From the NCBI RefSeq assembly GCF_002854065.1, contig NZ_CP024151.1: DNA of 64,000 nucleotides. One strand, given 5' to 3'. Made by a program: the position numbers and the translations under genes. How positions within the stretch are numbered: the stretch's first letter is position 1; every line of letters starts with the position of its first letter. The notes under the pieces are model-generated. The model was not told where the DNA came from. It did not search any database and saw only the letters and a program-made list of their open reading frames with translations. Source of the DNA: Escherichia coli. Its GTDB lineage: Bacteria > Pseudomonadota > Gammaproteobacteria > Enterobacterales > Enterobacteriaceae. This document shows positions 3-37,832 of the stretch, one piece after another.

Positions 3-822
3 GGCACTGTTGCAAATAGTCGGTGGTGATAAACTTATCATCCCCTTTTACTGATGGAGCTGCACATGAACCCATTCAAAGGCCGGTATTTTCAGCGTGA
101 CATCATTCTGTGGGCCGTACGCTGGTACTGCAAATACGGCATCAGTTACCGTGAGCTGCAGGAGATGCTGGCTGAACGCGGAGTGAATGTCGATCACTCC
201 ACGATTTACCGCTGGGTTCAGCGTTATGCGCCTGAAATGGAAAAACGGCTGCGCTGGTACTGGCGTAACCCTTCCGATCTTTGCCCGTGGCACATGGATG
301 AAACCTACGTGAAGGTCAATGGCCGCTGGGCGTATCTGTACCGGGCCGTCGACAGCCGGGGCCGCACTGTCGATTTTTATCTCTCCTCCCGTCGTAACAG
401 CAAAGCTGCATACCGGTTTCTGGGTAAAATCCTCAACAACGTGAAGAAGTGGCAGATCCCGCGATTCATCAACACGGATAAAGCGCCCGCCTATGGTCGC
501 GCGCTTGCTCTGCTCAAACGCGAAGGCCGGTGCCCGTCTGACGTTGAACACCGACAGATTAAGTACCGGAACAACGTGATTGAATGCGATCATGGCAAAC
601 TGAAACGGATAATCGACGCCACGCTGGGATTTAAATCCATGAAGACGGCTTACGCCACCATCAAAGGTATTGAGGTGATGCGTGCACTACGCAAAGGCCA
701 GGCCTCAGCATTTTATTATGGTGATCCCCTGGGCGAAATGCGCCTGGTAAGCAGAGTTTTTGAAATGTAAGGCCTTTGAATAAGACAAAAGGCTGCCTCA
801 TCGCTAACTTTGCAACAGTGCC
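3..822 (+). mobile_element. IS26 (IS6 family), complete 820-bp element
   Basis: 14-bp terminal inverted repeats GGCACTGTTGCAAA at 3-16 and its reverse complement at 809-822; internal transposase ORF. Left flank is cut by the window edge so target duplication cannot be checked. Confidence 0.9.
66..770 (+). CDS. tnpA: IS26/IS6-family DDE transposase
   Basis: Translation MNPFKGRYFQRDIILWAVRWYCKYGISYRELQEMLAERGVNVDHSTIYRW... is the recognisable IS26 Tnp26 sequence; start set at MNPFKG inside the longer track ORF 54-770. Confidence 0.9.
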   Translation: MNPFKGRYFQRDIILWAVRWYCKYGISYRELQEMLAERGVNVDHSTIYRWVQRYAPEMEKRLRWYWRNPSDLCPWHMDETYVKVNGRWAYLYRAVDSRGRTVDFYLSSRRNSKAAYRFLGKILNNVKKWQIPRFINTDKAPAYGRALALLKREGRCPSDVEHRQIKYRNNVIECDHGKLKRIIDATLGFKSMKTAYATIKGIEVMRALRKGQASAFYYGDPLGEMRLVSRVFEM

Positions 823-939
823 GAAAACAGAACCGTTCGATAATACCTGTGTTTAACACCCTGTCAGTACTGATGAAATTTAAATCTCCGATTATAGCTT
901 TTTTCGGATCTCAGCAGAAAAAAGACAGAAGTGTGTATA

Positions 940-1045
940 GGTTTGGCATATGCGTACCCCTGCCATCTGCATATGCTATATCTATACATATGCCGATCAT
1001 CTGCATATACTGAGCATATGTATAAAGGCCGGTCGGCCAGGAGGA
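940..1045 (+). promoter_or_regulatory. vagCD promoter/operator region with repeated CATCTGCATATG-type palindromic motifs and RBS
   Basis: Several copies of GCATATG / CATCTGCATAT palindromes immediately upstream of vagC; AGGAGG at 1040-1045, 4 nt before the ATG at 1050. Typical autoregulated TA operator layout. Confidence 0.5.
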
Positions 1046-1049
1046 AATA

Positions 1050-1280
1050 ATGAGAACCGTATCCATTTTTAAAAACGGCAATAACCGCGCCATCCGTCTG
1101 CCCCGCGATCTTGATTTTGAGGGGGTGAGCGAGCTGGAGATCGTCCGGGAAGGGGACAGCATCATCCTGCGCCCCGTCCGGCCGACCTGGGGCTCGTTCG
1201 CGAAGCTCGAAAAAGCTGACCCGGACTTTATGGCGGAGCGCGAGGACGTTGTCACCGACGAAGGACGGGTTAACCTGTGA
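1050..1280 (+). CDS. vagC: VagC/VapB-type antitoxin (SpoVT/AbrB fold)
   Basis: 76-aa ORF MRTVSIFKNGNNRAIRLPRDLDFEGVSELEIVREGDSIILRPV...; AbrB-like swapped-hairpin antitoxin; stop overlaps the start of the downstream PIN toxin gene. Confidence 0.85.
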   Translation: MRTVSIFKNGNNRAIRLPRDLDFEGVSELEIVREGDSIILRPVRPTWGSFAKLEKADPDFMAEREDVVTDEGRVNL

Positions 1281-1693
1281 ACAAAACGTATATGCTGGAC
1301 ACCAACATCTGCTCTTTCATCATGCGCGAGCAGCCGGAAGCCGTCCTGAAGCGCCTGGAGCAGGCGGTGCTGCGTGGCCACCGTATCGTGGTCTCGGCCA
1401 TCACTTATTCCGAAATGCGCTTCGGGGCTACCGGCCCGAAGGCCTCGCCGCGCCACGTGCAGCTGGTTGACGCGTTCTGCACCCGCCTCGATGCCATCCT
1501 GCCCTGGGATCGCGCCGCGGTGGACGCGACCACGGAGATTAAGGTGGCGCTGCGCCTCGCCGGGACGCCGATCGGCCCGAACGACACGGCGATTGCCGGA
1601 CACTCCATCGCCGCCGGTGCCGTGCTGGTGACGAATAATACGCGGGAATTTGAACGGGTACCGGGTCTTGTGCTGGAAGACTGGATAAGATAA
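1277..1693 (+). CDS. vagD: VagD/VapC-type PIN-domain toxin
   Basis: 138-aa ORF MNKTYMLDTNICSFIMREQPEAVLKRLEQ... with the N-terminal LDTN acidic PIN motif; 4-bp overlap with vagC. Confidence 0.85.
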   Translation: MNKTYMLDTNICSFIMREQPEAVLKRLEQAVLRGHRIVVSAITYSEMRFGATGPKASPRHVQLVDAFCTRLDAILPWDRAAVDATTEIKVALRLAGTPIGPNDTAIAGHSIAAGAVLVTNNTREFERVPGLVLEDWIR

Positions 1694-1766
1694 CGCTGTA
1701 AAACAAAACAGGCGGTCTGGCGCTGCCGGACACTCTTTCAGTCAGCGGTATATAAAGGAATAAAAG

Positions 1767-3329
1767 ATGCCTCTGATCACGCGGCTTATGCTGCAAAACT
1801 TTAAAAAGTTTCCGGAACTGGACCTGCGCTTCACTCATGACCGTAACATTCTGGTCGGGGACAATGAGTCCGGGAAAAGCACGATTCTGCTGGCCCTTGA
1901 CCTTGTGCTGAGCGACAGCCGGCACCGGGTCGAGGCATTGGGTGTGGAATCGCTCCTGTCCCAGTCAGCAGTCAGGCAGTTTCAGGAAGGTGAGCGCCGC
2001 GCCGATCGGTTACCCGTGCTGACAGCTGATGTTTTCCTGAGTAATGGGGGAGATCCTGACCTGAACGGCAGGCAAAATCTGGCGGGTATCGATGCGGATG
2101 GTCTCAGAATGCGCATTGCACCCATGACGGAGGAATACGGTCAGGATATACATCATGTCCTGCAGCAGGATCCCGATAATTTTCCCTATGAATACTATTC
2201 CGTGCGGTTCAGCACCTTCTCCGGGGGGCATTTTGCCGGCTTCAGACGCTATCTGCGCCATCTGCTGTTAGACAGTGCACGCATCGATAACGAGCACGCC
2301 GCACAGGAATATACGCGCACAGTTTACAGCGTCAATGTGCCGGTAGCCGATCGGTACCGGCTTGAAAACAGTTACCGGCAACAGAAAATGCACTTCTGCA
2401 CCCGGCATCTGTCAGCCATAAACGACACGCTGGATACGTATCAGTTTGGCGTGCGTTCCGGTGCTAAATCAGGTCTTGAGGCGAATCTGGACATTACCGA
2501 GGACGGTATTTCCATTCGTCACCGTGGAAAAGGAAGGCAGTGCTTCATCAAAACAGAGTTTGCACTGCAGCGGCATCAGCAGCAGGGAGAGCTCCACGCA
2601 CTGTTGCTTGAGGAGCCGGAGAATCATCTCAGCCATGTCAGTATGAAGAGGCTGGTTAATCAGCTTGCAACTGAACGGCAGACGCAGGTGTTTATTGCCA
2701 CACACAGCAGCCATATCTCATCCCGCCTCGATCTGCGTAAGGCAATCCTCCTCGGGTCTGCCCGACCGGTACTGATGAATGAACTTTCCGCTGAGACTGC
2801 CGCCTTCTTCATGAAAGCACCGGACAATAATGTGCTGGAATTTGCGCTGGCCAGACGTGTGCTGCTCGTGGAGGGGGATGCTGAGTTTATTCTGATCGAG
2901 GCCTTTTATCGCCGCCTGTATGGCAGGTCGCCGGAGGATGACGGGGTTCACATCATCGCTATCGGCGGAACGAGTTTCCGTCGTTATCTTGAACTGGCCC
3001 GTCTTCTGGAAAATCGCGTCGCGGCCCTTCGTGATAATGACGGCAACTATCAGCAAAACTGCGATGAACGCTATGCTGACGTGCTTTGTTCCCGCTCCCG
3101 GGTATTTGCTGATCGCGATAACACCCGATCCACATTTGAAATCTGCCTGTATCAGGATAACGCTGGTCTGTGTGATGCGCTTTTCCGCGGAACACGCCGG
3201 ACACTCACGGTGCAGGAATACATGCTGGCCAATAAGGCAGAAGCAGCATTCCGGCTGTTACAGCTGCACGCCGAAGAGCTGACAGTACCTGATTATATTC
3301 AGGAGGCACTGGCATGGATAAGAGAGTGA
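1767..3329 (+). CDS. OLD-family ATP-dependent endonuclease (N-terminal ABC-type ATPase plus C-terminal TOPRIM), GajA-like
   Basis: Walker A GDNESGKST near the N-terminus, Walker B-like LLLEEPENHL, H-loop IATHS, then TOPRIM signature LLVEGDAEFIL ... RDNDG. RBS AAGGAATAAAAG precedes the ATG. Confidence 0.8.
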   Translation: MPLITRLMLQNFKKFPELDLRFTHDRNILVGDNESGKSTILLALDLVLSDSRHRVEALGVESLLSQSAVRQFQEGERRADRLPVLTADVFLSNGGDPDLNGRQNLAGIDADGLRMRIAPMTEEYGQDIHHVLQQDPDNFPYEYYSVRFSTFSGGHFAGFRRYLRHLLLDSARIDNEHAAQEYTRTVYSVNVPVADRYRLENSYRQQKMHFCTRHLSAINDTLDTYQFGVRSGAKSGLEANLDITEDGISIRHRGKGRQCFIKTEFALQRHQQQGELHALLLEEPENHLSHVSMKRLVNQLATERQTQVFIATHSSHISSRLDLRKAILLGSARPVLMNELSAETAAFFMKAPDNNVLEFALARRVLLVEGDAEFILIEAFYRRLYGRSPEDDGVHIIAIGGTSFRRYLELARLLENRVAALRDNDGNYQQNCDERYADVLCSRSRVFADRDNTRSTFEICLYQDNAGLCDALFRGTRRTLTVQEYMLANKAEAAFRLLQLHAEELTVPDYIQEALAWIRE

Positions 3330-4336
3330 TATTTGCGGTTGCCGGCTCGGGCAAGACCACGCTGCTGATACAGCGGTTGAGTGAGGACCGGCGGACGCTG
3401 ATCCTGACCTTCACCGTGAATAATGAAGCGCATCTCCGGGCGCAGATTATCAGACGTTTTGGCTTTATCCCGGACGGGATCAGGGTGATGACCTGGTTTG
3501 AGTTTCTGCACGGTTTTTGCTTCAGGCCTTTCCTGCAGGAGCAGCTGGCATCGCGTGGGCTGAGCTTCGACCAGCCCCCACCCAGAATACCGCGCACGAA
3601 TGCCCGGCATTATCAGGATCCCGCCGGACGGCTGTATCACCGGAGGCTCGCACACTTACTCACAGCCCGGGGGCTGCTGCCGGATATCCGTACCCGGCTT
3701 GCCCGTTACTACGATGAACTGCTTATCGATGAAGTCCAGGACTTTGCCGGACATGACTTTAATTTTCTGCTGGAGCTCTGCCGCGCGGAAATCACTGTGC
3801 TCTGTTGCGGCGATTTTTATCAACATACCTTTGATACAAGCCATGACGGCAACGTTAATTCAACGCTGCACGATGACATTACGCGATATGAGGCCCGCTT
3901 CGACGCAGCAGGTTTCACGGTTGACCGGGACACGCTCAACCGGACATGGCGTTGCTCAGCTTCAGTGTGCGAGTTTATCACCGGACAACTGAACATCCGT
4001 ATCGCTGCCCATGGGATACATGCCACCCTGATTGAAACGATCACAGATGCAGAGCGCACAGCCACCCTGCACGCCGATAATACGGTGATTAAGCTCTTCT
4101 ATCGTGAACATCACCGTTACGGCTGCTATTCCATGAACTGGGGCGTCAGTAAAGGGCTCGACCACTTTCAGGATGTCTGCATTGTGATGGGATCTTCCCA
4201 CTGGAAGCTTCTGACCCGTCAGGAACTGGCAGCCCTTCCACCGTCGTCCCGTAACAGGCTGTACGTGGCATGCTCACGGGCGCGCGGCAACATTTATTTT
4301 GTTCCCGAAATTCATCTGCGCCGATTCCGGAACTGA
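3314..4336 (+). CDS. Compact UvrD/Rep-like SF1 helicase (340 aa), GajB-like partner of the OLD nuclease
   Basis: Motif I AVAGSGKTTLL, motif II LLIDEVQDF, motif III GDFYQ, motif VI-like VACSRARG; start overlaps the last 16 nt of the OLD gene and its AGGAGG RBS lies inside the OLD 3' end, indicating translational coupling. Confidence 0.75.
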   Translation: MDKRVIFAVAGSGKTTLLIQRLSEDRRTLILTFTVNNEAHLRAQIIRRFGFIPDGIRVMTWFEFLHGFCFRPFLQEQLASRGLSFDQPPPRIPRTNARHYQDPAGRLYHRRLAHLLTARGLLPDIRTRLARYYDELLIDEVQDFAGHDFNFLLELCRAEITVLCCGDFYQHTFDTSHDGNVNSTLHDDITRYEARFDAAGFTVDRDTLNRTWRCSASVCEFITGQLNIRIAAHGIHATLIETITDAERTATLHADNTVIKLFYREHHRYGCYSMNWGVSKGLDHFQDVCIVMGSSHWKLLTRQELAALPPSSRNRLYVACSRARGNIYFVPEIHLRRFRN

Positions 4337-4469
4337 GTCAGCTGCTTCTCAGTCGGGCACAATTCAGAAATAAAGCTGTATGGCCAACGATGTCACTTCA
4401 GGCTGGAAAAGTGCGGATCCGGTTTTGGTGGTTTTCGGATCTGCGGTGGAGAAATGAGAAAACAGGATA

Positions 4470-4620
4470 TGCGCAGCATATCCACATGCCACGCATCTGC
4501 ATAGGGCAGACATACGCATATGTCAGTCATCTGCATATGTTACACCTATACAGACCAGTCCGGCAGGCATATACTGCACATATGTACTCACACATCATGC
4601 ATGATCAGCCGGAGGAACAT
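4470..4620 (+). promoter_or_regulatory. Second vagCD-type operator/promoter region (diverged duplicate)
   Basis: Same family of CATCTGCATATG / GCATATG palindromes as at 940-1030, upstream of the second vagC copy. Confidence 0.45.
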
Positions 4621-4622
4621 CC

Positions 4623-4853
4623 ATGCGCACAGTTTCGATATTTAAAAACGGCAATAACCGCGCCATCCGTCTGCCCCGGGACCTGGATTTTGACGGCGTC
4701 AGCGAGCTGGAGATCGTCCGGGAAGGGGACAGCATCATTCTGCGTCCCGTCCGGCCGACCTGGGGCTCGTTCGCGCAGCTGGACAGGGCCGATCCGGACT
4801 TTATGGCGGAGCGTGAGGATGTGGTCAGCGATGAAGGACGCTTTGAGCCATGA
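4623..4853 (+). CDS. vagC: Second VagC/VapB antitoxin copy
   Basis: 76-aa ORF about 90% identical to the first copy (MRTVSIFKNGNNRAIRLPRDLDFDGVSELEIVREGDSIILRPV...). Confidence 0.8.
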   Translation: MRTVSIFKNGNNRAIRLPRDLDFDGVSELEIVREGDSIILRPVRPTWGSFAQLDRADPDFMAEREDVVSDEGRFEP

Positions 4854-4993
4854 AGAAAACCTGGATGCTCGACACTAACATCTGCTCGTTCATCATGCGC
4901 GAGCAGCCGGCAGCGGTGCTGAAGCGCCTGGAGCAGGCGGTGCTGTCAACGCCACGATGTTTGACCGTTATTTGCCATTTTCATGCCCGCTAA
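4850..4993 (+). pseudogene. vagD: Truncated vagD/vapC (PIN toxin) remnant
   Basis: MKKTWMLDTNICSFIMREQPAAVLKRLEQAVL matches the vagD N-terminus for about 32 codons, then homology ends at about 4945 where IS21-family-derived sequence begins; the reading frame runs into unrelated sequence and stops at 4993. Confidence 0.75.
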
Positions 4994-5003
4994 GATACTT
5001 TCG

Positions 5004-5787
<784 letters not shown>

Positions 5788-5791
<4 letters not shown>

Positions 5792-6429
5792 AACAGCTCC
5801 TCATAGGCACTCAGTGGTCGATGTTCCACCTGACTGACCTGCTGCCAGAGCGGGGCGTGATGCTCCGGCACTGTCTGCCAGCCAGACGATGCCGGACAGA
5901 GGCGATGTGAGGCCACCAGTTTCTCATTACTGTAGATCCGCAACTCGTCATCCAGCGATATTCGTATCGATACTGGCTGACCACACAGCGCTTCGGGAAC
6001 GCTGTAACGATTACCACCAACCTCGATATAGCTGTCCCAGGACACATGGCGGATGTCGAAGTAACTGGTATCGAAGTCCGTATCCGGTAACGGCTGCAGA
6101 TGTTCCTGCTCCAGCGCGAAGCGCTGTTCCGGCGTTTCTTTGAACTGGCGAAGCTCCCGTTTGTCAGCCACATCGGCTATCCATTGCTCCAGTTGTTGAT
6201 TAACATGAGTGAAGCTGTCGAACCTGCGGTACCGGACGAAGAAGTTCTCCTTGAGGTATTTCACCATCCGCTCAACCTTACCTTTTGTTCTGGCCCTGCG
6301 TGGACGGCATGCCCGTGGCAGGAAGTTATAGTGGTCGGCCAGCAACAGGAATCCGGAGTTGAACACGACTTTCCCGTTGTTATTCTTCAGCACCGCAGCC
6401 TTCTGGTTATCAACCAGCACCGTTTTCAC
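5788..6429 (-). pseudogene. istA: istA (IS21-family transposase) C-terminal fragment
   Basis: Translation ...[24 protein letters not shown]... is characteristic of the IstA C-terminal region; the N-terminal catalytic part is absent. Confidence 0.7.
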
Positions 6430-6990
6430 ACAACCACCGAATTTGATCCCTGAAAACTGTCAGCGCTGCGAGGACGAAGAAAGTATTACGGCTAAAGCCG
6501 TAATACCTCCCCATCCAGCTTCAAGCTATGTAGAAACTTATGTGGGTAGAGCAGTCCCGACAGGGCAGTACCGCATTGACAGGCCGTCAGGGCCACTTAC
6601 GAGCTTGTATGACAAGGGGGGCCGTCTGGATATAGCGAATTATTGTACGGTAAGCCTTTTTTGAACAGCCTTACCTATTGCTATAGAGGGGAACTCCTAC
6701 GTTATACGCCGCTTTCAGGGGATTCGACCTTAATGAGACAACTCAAATATGATCGACAACTTAAACGCGATAGTTGCTGATAAAATCAATCCATTACGCG
6801 TTTCAATTGATTAAATAATGCACTTAATGTACAAAAATTCCCGATCTCAAAACTGAACCCTAAAGATACCAGGCATCTCCCCCAGGAAGCGCCCTCATGC
6901 GTTTTCCTGTTCCGCCCCTGCCACCTACCTTCTGTTTCATACTTGTTGTATTATTGTTTTTGTTTTCAATCCCCAAGGAGACGTCGCTAT

Positions 6991-24341: not shown

Positions 24342-25753
<1,412 letters not shown>

Positions 25754-36558: not shown

Positions 36559-37421
36559 GCTTAGTCAGCCGTTGTCTCCGGGTGTCGCGTGCGCAGTTGC
36601 ACGTCATTCTCAGACGAACCGATGACTGGAAAGATGGTCGCCGCAGCCGTCACTCAGATGATATGGATGTACTTCTCCGTATACACCATGTTATCGGAGA
36701 GCTGCCCACGTATGGTTATCGTCGGGTATGGGCGCTGCTTCGCAGACAGGCCGAACTTGATGGTATGCCTGCGATCAATGCCAAACGTGTTTACCGGATC
36801 ATGTGCCAGAATGCGCTGTTGCTTGAGCGAAAAACCGCTGTACCGCCATCGAAGCGGGCACATACTGGCAAAGTGGCCGTGAAAGAAAGCAATCAACGAT
36901 GGTGCTCTGACGGGTTCGAGTTCCGCTGTGATAACGGAGAAAAACTGCGAGTCACGTTCGCGCTGGACTGCTGTGACCGTGAGGCACTGTACTGGGCGGT
37001 CACTACGGGCGGCTTCGACAGTGAAACAGTACAGGACGTCATGCTGGGAGCGGTTGAACGCCGCTTCGGCAACGAGCTTCCGGCGTCTCCAGTAGAGTGG
37101 CTGACGGATAATGGTTCATGCTACCGGGCTAATGAAACACGGCAGTTTGCCCGGATGTTGGGGCTTGAACCGAAGAACACGGCGGTGCGGAGTCCGGAGA
37201 GTAACGGCATAGCAGAGAGCTTCGTGAAAACGATAAAGCGTGACTACATCAGTGTCATGCCTAAACCAGACGGGTTAACGGCAGCAAAGAACCTTGCAGA
37301 GGCGTTCGAGCATTATAACGAATGGCATCCGCATAGTGCACTGGGTTATCGCTCGCCACGGGAATATCTACGGCAGCAGGCCAGTAATGGGTTAAGTGAT
37401 AACAGGTGTCTGGAAATATAG
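36516..37421 (+). CDS. insD: IS2 OrfB (InsD)
   Basis: 301-aa DDE transposase ORF overlapping orfA in the -1 frame. Confidence 0.9.
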
Positions 37422-37832
37422 GGGCAAATCCAGTATCCGGATGTGCTGCCAGCCTTCTCAGTTAACCGATGTTTTCCGGGCTTTTTGCCATACTGAGGAC
37501 TGATAACGTATTCCTGGTCGTAAAACCCGTCAATATGCGCCGGGGCATCGACAAAACTGACACAGTACGTCCGGAAAGAACTTAACGCTGCATGGCACGA
37601 CAATGCTGCCTTTGTCTTTACCAACAAGGCTCGTTCCCGCATAAAAGTTCTACGCCGGGATAAACATGGCGTATGGCTGCGTCAGGCCTTCACTACTTCA
37701 CACCGGAAGTCTTCCAGCCTGACACGAATATACCGTCCGGGCTCTTTCGCAGGTGCAAACAGTTTTTCACATTCGGCGAATGTCATTTCTGAATCCTGGT
37801 AACGCAACCACTGAACCGGCATATTACCGGGT

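Follow-up and report, generated by a model that had tools for sequence, protein, structure and literature searches.

We analysed a region of a 64,000-nucleotide stretch of an Escherichia coli plasmid (contig NZ_CP024151.1, hereafter the window; loci used for comparison carry L numbers), in which two copies of a vapBC (vagCD) toxin-antitoxin (TA) locus bracket a nuclease-helicase gene pair resembling the Gabija defence system (gajAB). The region is in all probability a recombinational mosaic of three separable modules, eroded later by insertion sequences (IS). The first, vapBC1, is an intact type II toxin-antitoxin (addiction) locus. The second, gajAB, is a short Gabija-like operon starting 73 bp after vapC1. 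The third, vapBC2, is a second vapBC locus that belongs to the stand-alone vagCD clade of IncR, pLVPK-type and Citrobacter/Enterobacter plasmids. The first two modules are co-inherited, presumably because the addiction module penalises loss of the segment and the defence genes hitch-hike; vapBC1 would stabilise the adjacent Gabija operon by post-segregational killing. Recombination would then have placed the vapBC1-gajAB block immediately upstream of a resident vapBC2, by a crossover at a short hairpin-forming sequence that occurs both at the 5' edge of vapBC units and in the 3' flank of gajB, and conserved flanks together with vapBC homology could allow allelic replacement between backbones. 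Thereafter an IS21 end would have been joined to codon 32 of vapC2, with loss of the rest of this gene, and next an IS26-adjacent deletion would have removed two upstream genes (abi-like and DUF4238). What is left today would be a working TA locus, a Gabija-like operon that looks intact and, still with its promoter, the gene of an orphan antitoxin, vapB2 being probably still expressed.

The relationship between the two vapBC copies was determined by pairwise identity among 12 sequences, to which the Salmonella Dublin vagCD and an E. coli F-type allele were then added. One clade, called c2 (IncR, pLVPK-type, Citrobacter, pAF18_1 and copy 2 of the window), had an internal identity of 97–100%. 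The other group, c1, comprising all Gabija-linked copies and the gajAB-less S. Dublin vagCD, had an internal identity of 86–100%. Identity between the two groups was 82–87%, and the split was unchanged after the two additional alleles were included. Copy 2 was 99.4% identical to the alleles of L005 (IncR), L006 (pLVPK-type) and L007/L010, with a range of 99.4–100% to stand-alone alleles, whereas it was only about 86% identical to copy 1, for which Klebsiella Gabija-linked alleles gave 93%. Each copy thus has closer relatives elsewhere than in the other copy, and the diverged direct duplication that a first-pass annotation of this DNA had proposed does not hold. By these identities the two copies are rather two lineages placed side by side, with no local duplication. 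The same annotation had also considered that the defence genes were captured by recombination between two vagCD alleles. This proposal agrees best with two allele lineages and an IS-free bracket, and recombination between vagCD alleles or their flanks appears to be the best explanation of the composite.

Backbones carrying vagCD without the nuclease-helicase pair, a comparison put forward in the first-pass annotation, were indeed available for two matching pairs of plasmids. In the first pair, L013 (vapBC1-gajAB) and the IncR plasmid L005 (vapBC2 only), the left flanks were 99–100% identical to about 400 bp before vapB; nearer vapB the identity was 58–92%, and homology ended at the vapC stop codon. 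In the second pair, the E. coli F-type plasmid L022 (ccdAB-vapBC-gajAB) and the S. Dublin plasmid pSDV (L023, ccdAB-vapBC) diverged 15 bp past the vapC stop codon. On the other side of the junction, the gajAB genes of Serratia and Pantoea (about 71% nucleotide identity) could be aligned to the window only from positions 1754–1757. The end of the S. Dublin homology and the start of the Serratia/Pantoea homology thus place the boundary between the TA and Gabija modules within 1709–1753.

No vapBC locus was present near gajAB on the Serratia chromosome (TopB/SSB region), on a Pantoea Rep3 plasmid or in the Tn7-like locus of Yersinia, where GajA has 59% amino-acid identity. The Yersinia homologue (L019/L020) lies beside TniQ/TnsD and TniB genes, apparently as cargo of a Tn7-like element. 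A nuclease-helicase pair with no vagCD nearby, which had been named as a finding that would speak against the association, therefore does exist, but only at this distance (Serratia, Pantoea, Yersinia). Since these distant homologues lack vapBC, Gabija is an autonomous two-gene module whose TA linkage is clade-specific. Among plasmids, the Atlantibacter/pAF18_1 lineage has only a frameshifted 3' remnant of vapC1 before gajAB, and the L014 and L010 lineages have kept gajAB although they no longer have vapB1, the vapBC1 promoter or the beginning of vapC1, a sign that gajAB may be independent of this promoter. A 96-aa open reading frame (ORF) upstream of gajA, considered as a conserved third gene, was rejected: it is a frameshifted vapC1 remnant in the Atlantibacter-type plasmids and unrelated in Yersinia.

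Junctions were counted in a search of 72,556 plasmid records. The vapC1-to-gajA junction was present in 2,177 of them; in enterobacterial plasmids the four genes of vapBC1-gajAB are widely inherited together, as a block of some 3.5 kb. The gajB-to-vapB2 junction was found in 68 records, 59 with an intact vapBC2 (mostly Citrobacter/Enterobacter IncF plasmids) and nine of the IS21-truncated type seen in the window. The exact 4.3-kb stretch including the IS21 junction occurs in nine records, E. coli and Shigella IncFIB/IncFIC plasmids that are at least 99.8% identical. The block has at least four different left neighbours: DUF4238, hyp351/hyp744, ccdAB, and IS3 with a hypothetical gene. In the majority of Klebsiella and E. 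coli carriers, what follows gajB is not vapBC2 but either an HNH gene with the sil operon or IS1. In L011, L012 and L014 the HNH endonuclease gene is followed by DUF305 and the sil copper/silver operon, a setting shared by most Klebsiella, Enterobacter and Atlantibacter carriers; in PADLOC the HNH gene weakly resembled a type IV restriction enzyme (5.5e-07).

These counts support one part of another early suggestion, that the defence genes travel as cargo of a TA-marked cassette, inasmuch as the vapBC1-gajAB junction recurs widely. The cassette itself fares less well. Distant gajAB genes lack vapBC, and on the same plasmids gajAB is conserved at 96.5–97.1% versus 87.5–93.2% for the linked vapBC1, so that the block itself is mosaic. 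Within 823–4945 neither terminal repeats nor a recombinase was found and the boundaries vary by context, which is not what a discrete mobile cassette would look like. The pattern fits homologous exchange between backbones, and recombination, not a dedicated mobile element, maintains the linkage. The vapBC-Gabija linkage is thus real but limited to one enterobacterial plasmid clade, within which the data support in part the suggestion that the defence genes travel with the TA locus.

The most informative relative is pWL297-2 (L002), a plasmid with the order vapBC1-gajAB-vapBC2, both toxins intact and no IS at the junctions, which is co-linear with 823–4945 at 98.5%. Compared with this plasmid, the window was 100% identical up to about position 4420, 59–80% across the operator, and 95–100% in the coding sequence. 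Similarity of Klebsiella vapBC1-gajAB plasmids to the window stops at 4424, and stand-alone vapBC2-type units without helicase, present on many plasmids, match it only from about 4413–4432 onward; one of these units, on an IncR plasmid, is 99.7% identical to the pWL297-2 copy. The 3' flank of gajB ends here in a hairpin whose right arm, TTTTCGGATCT, is the first conserved sequence of vapBC units elsewhere (alignments A1 and A2). In a motif search the TTTTCGGATCT motif at 887–912 behaves as a left-edge marker of vapBC units, and a repeat search in the window paired 887–911 with 4418–4442 (repeat D6). There are two gajAB lineages (window/L001 and L010/L014), about 87% apart, and in either of them vapBC2 is found downstream in some plasmids and HNH, sil or IS1 in others. 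Taken together, the alignments point to what may be repeated crossovers at the hairpin and at the start of vapB. The vapBC2 operator region, analysed in 40-bp windows, was 85–98% identical to the pLVPK-type allele L006 and 59–80% to the IncR-type in L002, which suggests that operators may have been swapped independently of the c2 coding sequences. At least two c2 operator types were seen, pLVPK/window and IncR, with 59–80% mutual identity (window 4420–4617 versus L002 9770–9977). A role of the shared hairpin as terminator or conserved structure was rejected, as there was no U-tract, no terminator in the scan, and unremarkable folding. Downstream of the intact vapBC2, pWL297-2 (11963–14300) carries an IS110-family element and the BREX gene brxL, another sign of a plasmid defence island.

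Several points weigh against the proposed history. No plasmid was found that matches the exact precursor, in which gajB would be followed directly, at 99% identity or more, by a window-type operator with a complete vapC2, and the operator of pWL297-2 is of the IncR-type. The hairpin is only a candidate crossover, with folding z-scores of +0.1 to −2.6, weak at copy 1. Clade assignments come from about 14 hand-picked alleles. The hitch-hiking of defence genes with the TA locus is deduced, and one ancient fusion followed by spread would yield the same counts. As to defence itself, GajA is only a distant match to the solved Bacillus cereus GajA (5e-10), and a literature search found no phage-defence experiment on the short Gabija subtype.

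Comparison of the two copies at the nucleotide level confirmed the overall layout given in the first-pass annotation, an intact vagCD upstream and, downstream, a second operator with vagC and some 32 codons of vagD: vapB1, vapC1 and vapB2 are intact, and vapC2 consists of exactly 32 codons, up to 4945. The identity of the copies had however been put somewhat too high, at about 90%. A local alignment of 1049–1372 with 4622–4945 gave 281/324 identical positions (86.7%, ungapped), and the repeat search (D1) 86% over 300 nt. The upstream regulatory regions (about 887–1048 and 4418–4621) could only be aligned with gaps, at roughly 65–90% in patches. The second copy, that is operator, vapB2 and the 32 codons of vapC2, spans about 4444–4945. 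In the 64 kb of the window the 10-mer CATCTGCATA has only four occurrences (964, 998, 4494 and 4528), all within the two vapBC regulatory regions, where they form pairs whose members start 34 bp apart. A TATACA-17-TATACT promoter-like site is conserved in both copies (983–1011 and 4547–4575), and the CATCTGCATA/CATATG repeats, as candidate operators, overlap it in both. VapB1 and VapB2 share 68 of 76 residues; one difference lies in residues 1–50 and seven in residues 51–76, the C-terminal toxin-binding third. VapC1 shares 120 of 138 residues with the intact VapC2 of pWL297-2. The remaining part of vapC2 was not found anywhere in the 64-kb window, where paralogous copy 1 was the sole match, and its relocation as a signature of inversion or insertion was rejected on this ground.

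Most simply, the orphan vapB2 would be a decay product, and any regulatory or cross-neutralising role is speculative. A wider reading, which we regard as unlikely, is that vapBC with its conserved 5' hairpin serves as a portable homology arm, or landing pad, that moves Gabija by allelic replacement, and that IS decay of tandem alleles leaves an expressed orphan VapB2 able to disarm a competitor vagCD (IncR). If so, one compact unit would act in both plasmid-versus-plasmid and plasmid-versus-phage conflict. It also seems quite unlikely that the three-part arrangement was selected as such, with VapB2 acting as an anti-addiction antitoxin against competing c2-type plasmids (IncR), or as a repressor or heterodimer partner tuning vapBC1 and, by read-through, Gabija. 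Consistent with such selection, vapB2 keeps an intact ORF, a ribosome-binding site (RBS) and a promoter-like site, its product differs from VapB1 at only 1 of 50 positions in the DNA-binding half as against 7 of 26 in the toxin-binding tail, CATCTGCATA repeats are present in both operators, and no terminator is predicted between vapC1 and gajA. However, the nine records of the truncated form are too similar for conservation to inform on selection, the L014 and L010 lineages do without the vapBC1 promoter, and VapB2, being on the same replicon as vapBC1, cannot rescue cells from loss of this plasmid; it could act only against c2-type toxins of other replicons. The chromosomal ccd of Erwinia chrysanthemi protects against F-plasmid ccd and is an example of anti-addiction. 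The likeness is that an antitoxin homologous to that of a competing replicon could neutralise post-segregational killing; the difference is that the Erwinia ccd is a complete chromosomal TA locus protecting its host, whereas the window has an orphan antitoxin beside a related intact TA locus on the same plasmid.

Two further alternatives to the mosaic concern its origin. In the first, one vapBC locus doubled in situ as a tandem and diverged to about 86%, with Gabija inserted or already between the copies. The direct orientation of the copies and their homology over the entire unit, which begins about 190 bp upstream and extends as far as the vapC stop codon (1041–1684 versus L002 9967–10612, 85.8%), are as expected for such an event, but it is rejected by the allele identities given above, since stand-alone alleles nearly identical to copy 2 exist on backbones (IncR, pLVPK-type) that are unrelated; moreover, a second copy is absent from about 2,100 of the 2,177 plasmids with the block, and we consider a local duplication highly improbable. 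In the second, which is dismissed as equally improbable, unrelated vapBC loci were brought to the defence genes purely by IS26 and IS21 activity: the window unit is bounded by these elements, a second IS26 lies 2.4 kb further upstream on the same plasmid, and IS26 cuts into gajA in Citrobacter plasmids, but no IS sequence is present at vapC1-gajA or gajB-vapB2, and these junctions are conserved without these IS copies in pWL297-2, pAF18_1 and the 59 records with intact vapBC2. Neither IS terminal repeats nor target-site duplications were seen in the sequence at 1694–1766 or 4337–4444, and no IS was present at the gajB-vapB2 junction in the relatives inspected (pWL297-2, pAF18_1 and Citrobacter plasmids). 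Whether the IS elements alone had joined the vagCD copies, a point raised at the outset, is thus answered by IS-free internal junctions and by an intact bracket in pWL297-2. An IS-built bracket was rejected for this reason and because the junction recurs in the 59 records; the IS elements explain the truncation and the upstream deletion only.

The mosaic was then eroded from both sides. As first described, the unit lies between IS26 and an IS21-family remnant; the left-hand IS26 is complete, with 100% identity to the annotated IS26 of L002/L003, and the right-hand element is IS21 itself. The match of the window to the intact vapC2 of L002 ends exactly at 4945, with a 2-nt ambiguity at the vapC2/IS21 junction (TG at 4944–4945). 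The product of the vapC2' ORF has 47 aa (32 vapC codons and 15 junk IS21 codons) and retains only the first PIN acidic residue. The IS21 remnant at 4946–6441 is 97.9% identical to annotated istA/istB; it measures 1,496 bp where the matched intact record has 1,509 bp, a shortfall of about 13 bp, and its reading frames are broken. On the left, 823–929 matches L001 4001–4107 at 93.5%, and compared with L002/L003 the window lacks 2,131 bp next to IS26, which hold a DUF4238 gene and a gene for a 114-aa product that the annotation calls an abortive infection protein. Plasmid pRHB41-C14_2, one of the nine near-identical records, has the same IS21 junction, with the abi-like and DUF4238 genes still present between the same IS26 and vapB1. 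The IS21 junction is common to all nine records, so that the truncation by IS21 preceded the IS26-adjacent deletion, and since pWL297-2 is co-linear and has an intact vapC2, the bracket is older than both IS events.

IS26-mediated adjacent deletion and IS21-associated truncation occur in resistance and virulence plasmids. Here also IS26 was kept in place while the sequence beside it was lost, and one IS21 end abuts the truncated vapC2 while the other end is missing, in which there is nothing unusual.

The nuclease-helicase pair is, to judge from profile matches and motifs, a short, divergent Gabija-like subtype. GajA matched the PADLOC GajA model PDLC00102 over its full length (residues 4–517 of 520, E=1.5e-101) and GajB the PADLOC GajB model PDLC00148 over residues 1–330 of 340 (E=1.2e-47). 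Walker A (GDNESGKST), H-loop (ATHS) and TOPRIM (LVEGDAE/DNDG) motifs were recognised in GajA, and the domains PF13175 and PF20469 (OLD-like_TOPRIM) are present in a homologue with 97% identity. An adjacent helicase is the defining feature of class 2 OLD genes (PMC7049728). GajB has Walker A (GSGKTT), Walker B (DEVQD) and motif VI-like (YVACSRAR) sequences; its Pfam matches to UvrD and Viral_helicase1 of superfamily 1 (SF1) were weak, all worse than E=0.001, and no sequence relative was found in the PDB, so GajB would be a minimal, divergent member. The pair shares with Gabija of B. cereus VD045 a two-gene operon in which the SF1 helicase gene gajB lies immediately downstream of gajA and overlaps it. 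At 520 and 340 aa the window proteins are shorter than those of Gabija, with about 578 aa in solved GajA chains and about 494 aa in known GajB. No promoter or terminator in the vapC1-gajA spacer (1694–1766) passed the prediction scan, and from reading the sequence TATATA at 1749 was rejected as the −10 box of gajA, being too near the RBS.

A brief mention that Gabija, tmn and VapBC lie together on plasmids of E. coli was made by Wu et al. (bioRxiv 10.1101/2022.08.21.504612). That report deals with neither the double vapBC bracket nor the allele clades nor the truncation, and the Gabija cloned there (from ECOR49) was mutated at K35 and H317, as compared with K37 and H313 here, so that it is possibly another subtype. 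The literature search found no description of a vapBC-Gabija-vapBC bracket. The neighbourhood of Gabija and VapBC in general has already been noticed, and all the parts (vagCD/VapBC, Gabija, IS26, IS21) are of known kinds.

The TA proteins are also of a known kind. VapB1 and VapB2 both passed the cutoff of 60 of the NCBIfam VapB subfamily NF040493, with 94.1 and 92.5 bits, and vapB1 is annotated as vapB by PGAP in identical plasmid records. In both copies the antitoxin gene is directly upstream of the toxin gene and overlaps it (GTGA in copy 1, ATGA in copy 2), a translationally coupled arrangement. By homology VapB is probably an antitoxin of the AbrB fold, and it would in addition repress the promoter from which it is expressed, with the CATCTGCATA repeats as operator sites. 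VapC1 matched the tRNA(fMet)-specific endonuclease VapC of Shigella/Salmonella in the PDB (9h6a, E=3e-29), and its acidic residues D8, E46, D102 and E123 align with identical acidic residues of this solved chain. The four acidic residues of the PIN domain are thus complete in copy 1; copy 2, with residues 1–32, has the first Asp only. VapC would therefore be a PIN-domain endonuclease that cleaves initiator tRNA. VapC1 scored below the equivalog cutoffs of NCBIfam for tRNA(fMet) VapC (NF047863, 123 bits versus 140; NF010285, 109 versus 143), and target specificity is for this reason presumptive.

The vagCD/VapBC (MvpAT) modules of the S. Dublin virulence plasmid, of Shigella pMYSH6000 and of IncR backbones have the same gene order, sizes and 4-nt overlap, and the same AbrB-type antitoxin and PIN toxin with four acidic residues. 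Carriage of vagCD has been described for IncR backbones (PMC7707992). The S. Dublin vagCD is 91% identical to copy 1 of the window; that of the IncR backbone matches what remains of copy 2 at 99.4% identity and the pWL297-2 copy 2 at 100%. Unlike these known modules, copy 1 of the window is fused into a Gabija-like block and copy 2 is reduced to an orphan antitoxin. The features of the region are listed in Table 1.

Table 1. Coordinates of the features between the left end of IS26 and the end of the IS21 remnant in the window.
Feature	Position	Strand	Description
IS26, complete	3-822	+	820 bp; inverted repeats GGCACTGTTGCAAA at both ends; transposase ORF 54-770
DUF4238-vapB1 divergent intergenic region, remnant	823-929	not assigned	Weak hairpin and TTTTCGGATCT motif
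vapBC1 promoter/operator region	930-1049	+	CATCTGCATA pair; CATATG palindromes; promoter-like site
vapB1 (vagC)	1050-1280	+	Intact; 76 aa; AbrB/SpoVT-type antitoxin
vapC1 (vagD)	1277-1693	+	Intact; 138-aa PIN-domain toxin; GTG start; 4-nt overlap with vapB1 stop
vapC1-gajA spacer	1694-1766	+	73 bp; holds the TA/Gabija module boundary
gajA-like	1767-3329	+	520 aa; OLD-family (class 2) ABC-ATPase and TOPRIM nuclease
gajB-like	3314-4336	+	340 aa; short SF1/UvrD-like helicase; 16-nt overlap with gajA
gajB 3' flank	4337-4444	not assigned	Terminal hairpin 4413-4422/4435-4444; Gabija block meets vapBC2 unit
vapBC2 promoter/operator region	4445-4622	+	17-bp-spaced repeats at 4477, 4494, 4511, 4528; promoter-like site; RBS GGAGGAA
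vapB2	4623-4853	+	Intact 76-aa orphan antitoxin gene; c2 (stand-alone vagCD) clade
vapC2'	4850-4945	+	First 32 codons only; ORF extends to 4993 inside IS21
IS21 remnant	4946-6441	-	One terminal end; frameshifted istB; 3' part of istA

Other features were noted elsewhere in the window and in its relatives. At 24424–24448 (minus strand) a perfect 25-bp match to the IS21 terminal sequence 4946–4970 may be another IS21 end or remnant. At 37392–37434, a 43-bp perfect match to a sequence about 100 bp downstream of the pWL297-2 vapC2 looks like an IS end, since an IS5-family element is annotated over the adjacent segment in other records. The second IS26, 2.4 kb upstream of window position 1, was seen in L004 (NZ_CP055056.1, identical to the window; 2192–5991). 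The two IS26 copies bracket a ThsB-like TIR protein gene (PADLOC ThsB, 2.2e-48) and a PDC-M50A candidate defence gene (7.8e-32), and the Gabija block may therefore belong to an IS26-shuffled defence cluster. PADLOC gave no matches for DUF4238, the 114-aa abi-annotated gene or the 530-aa gene of L014. Between about 10,000 and 54,000 of the window lie, by correspondence with NZ_CP055056.1 1–30000 (L021), the IncFIB replication gene RepB, ccdAB with a site-specific integrase beside it, a TrlF-family AAA-like ATPase and two autotransporter genes of very large size.

The vapBC-Gabija-like block is present in about 3% of the enterobacterial plasmids sequenced (2,177 of the 72,556 records), many Klebsiella resistance plasmids among them. 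The tie between a defence operon and an addiction module may matter for the spread of phage and plasmid defence together with antibiotic resistance. The truncated second copy is a routine product of IS decay and the region an ordinary plasmid mosaic; only cross-neutralisation of competitor toxins by the orphan VapB2, if true, would add to the biology of plasmid competition.

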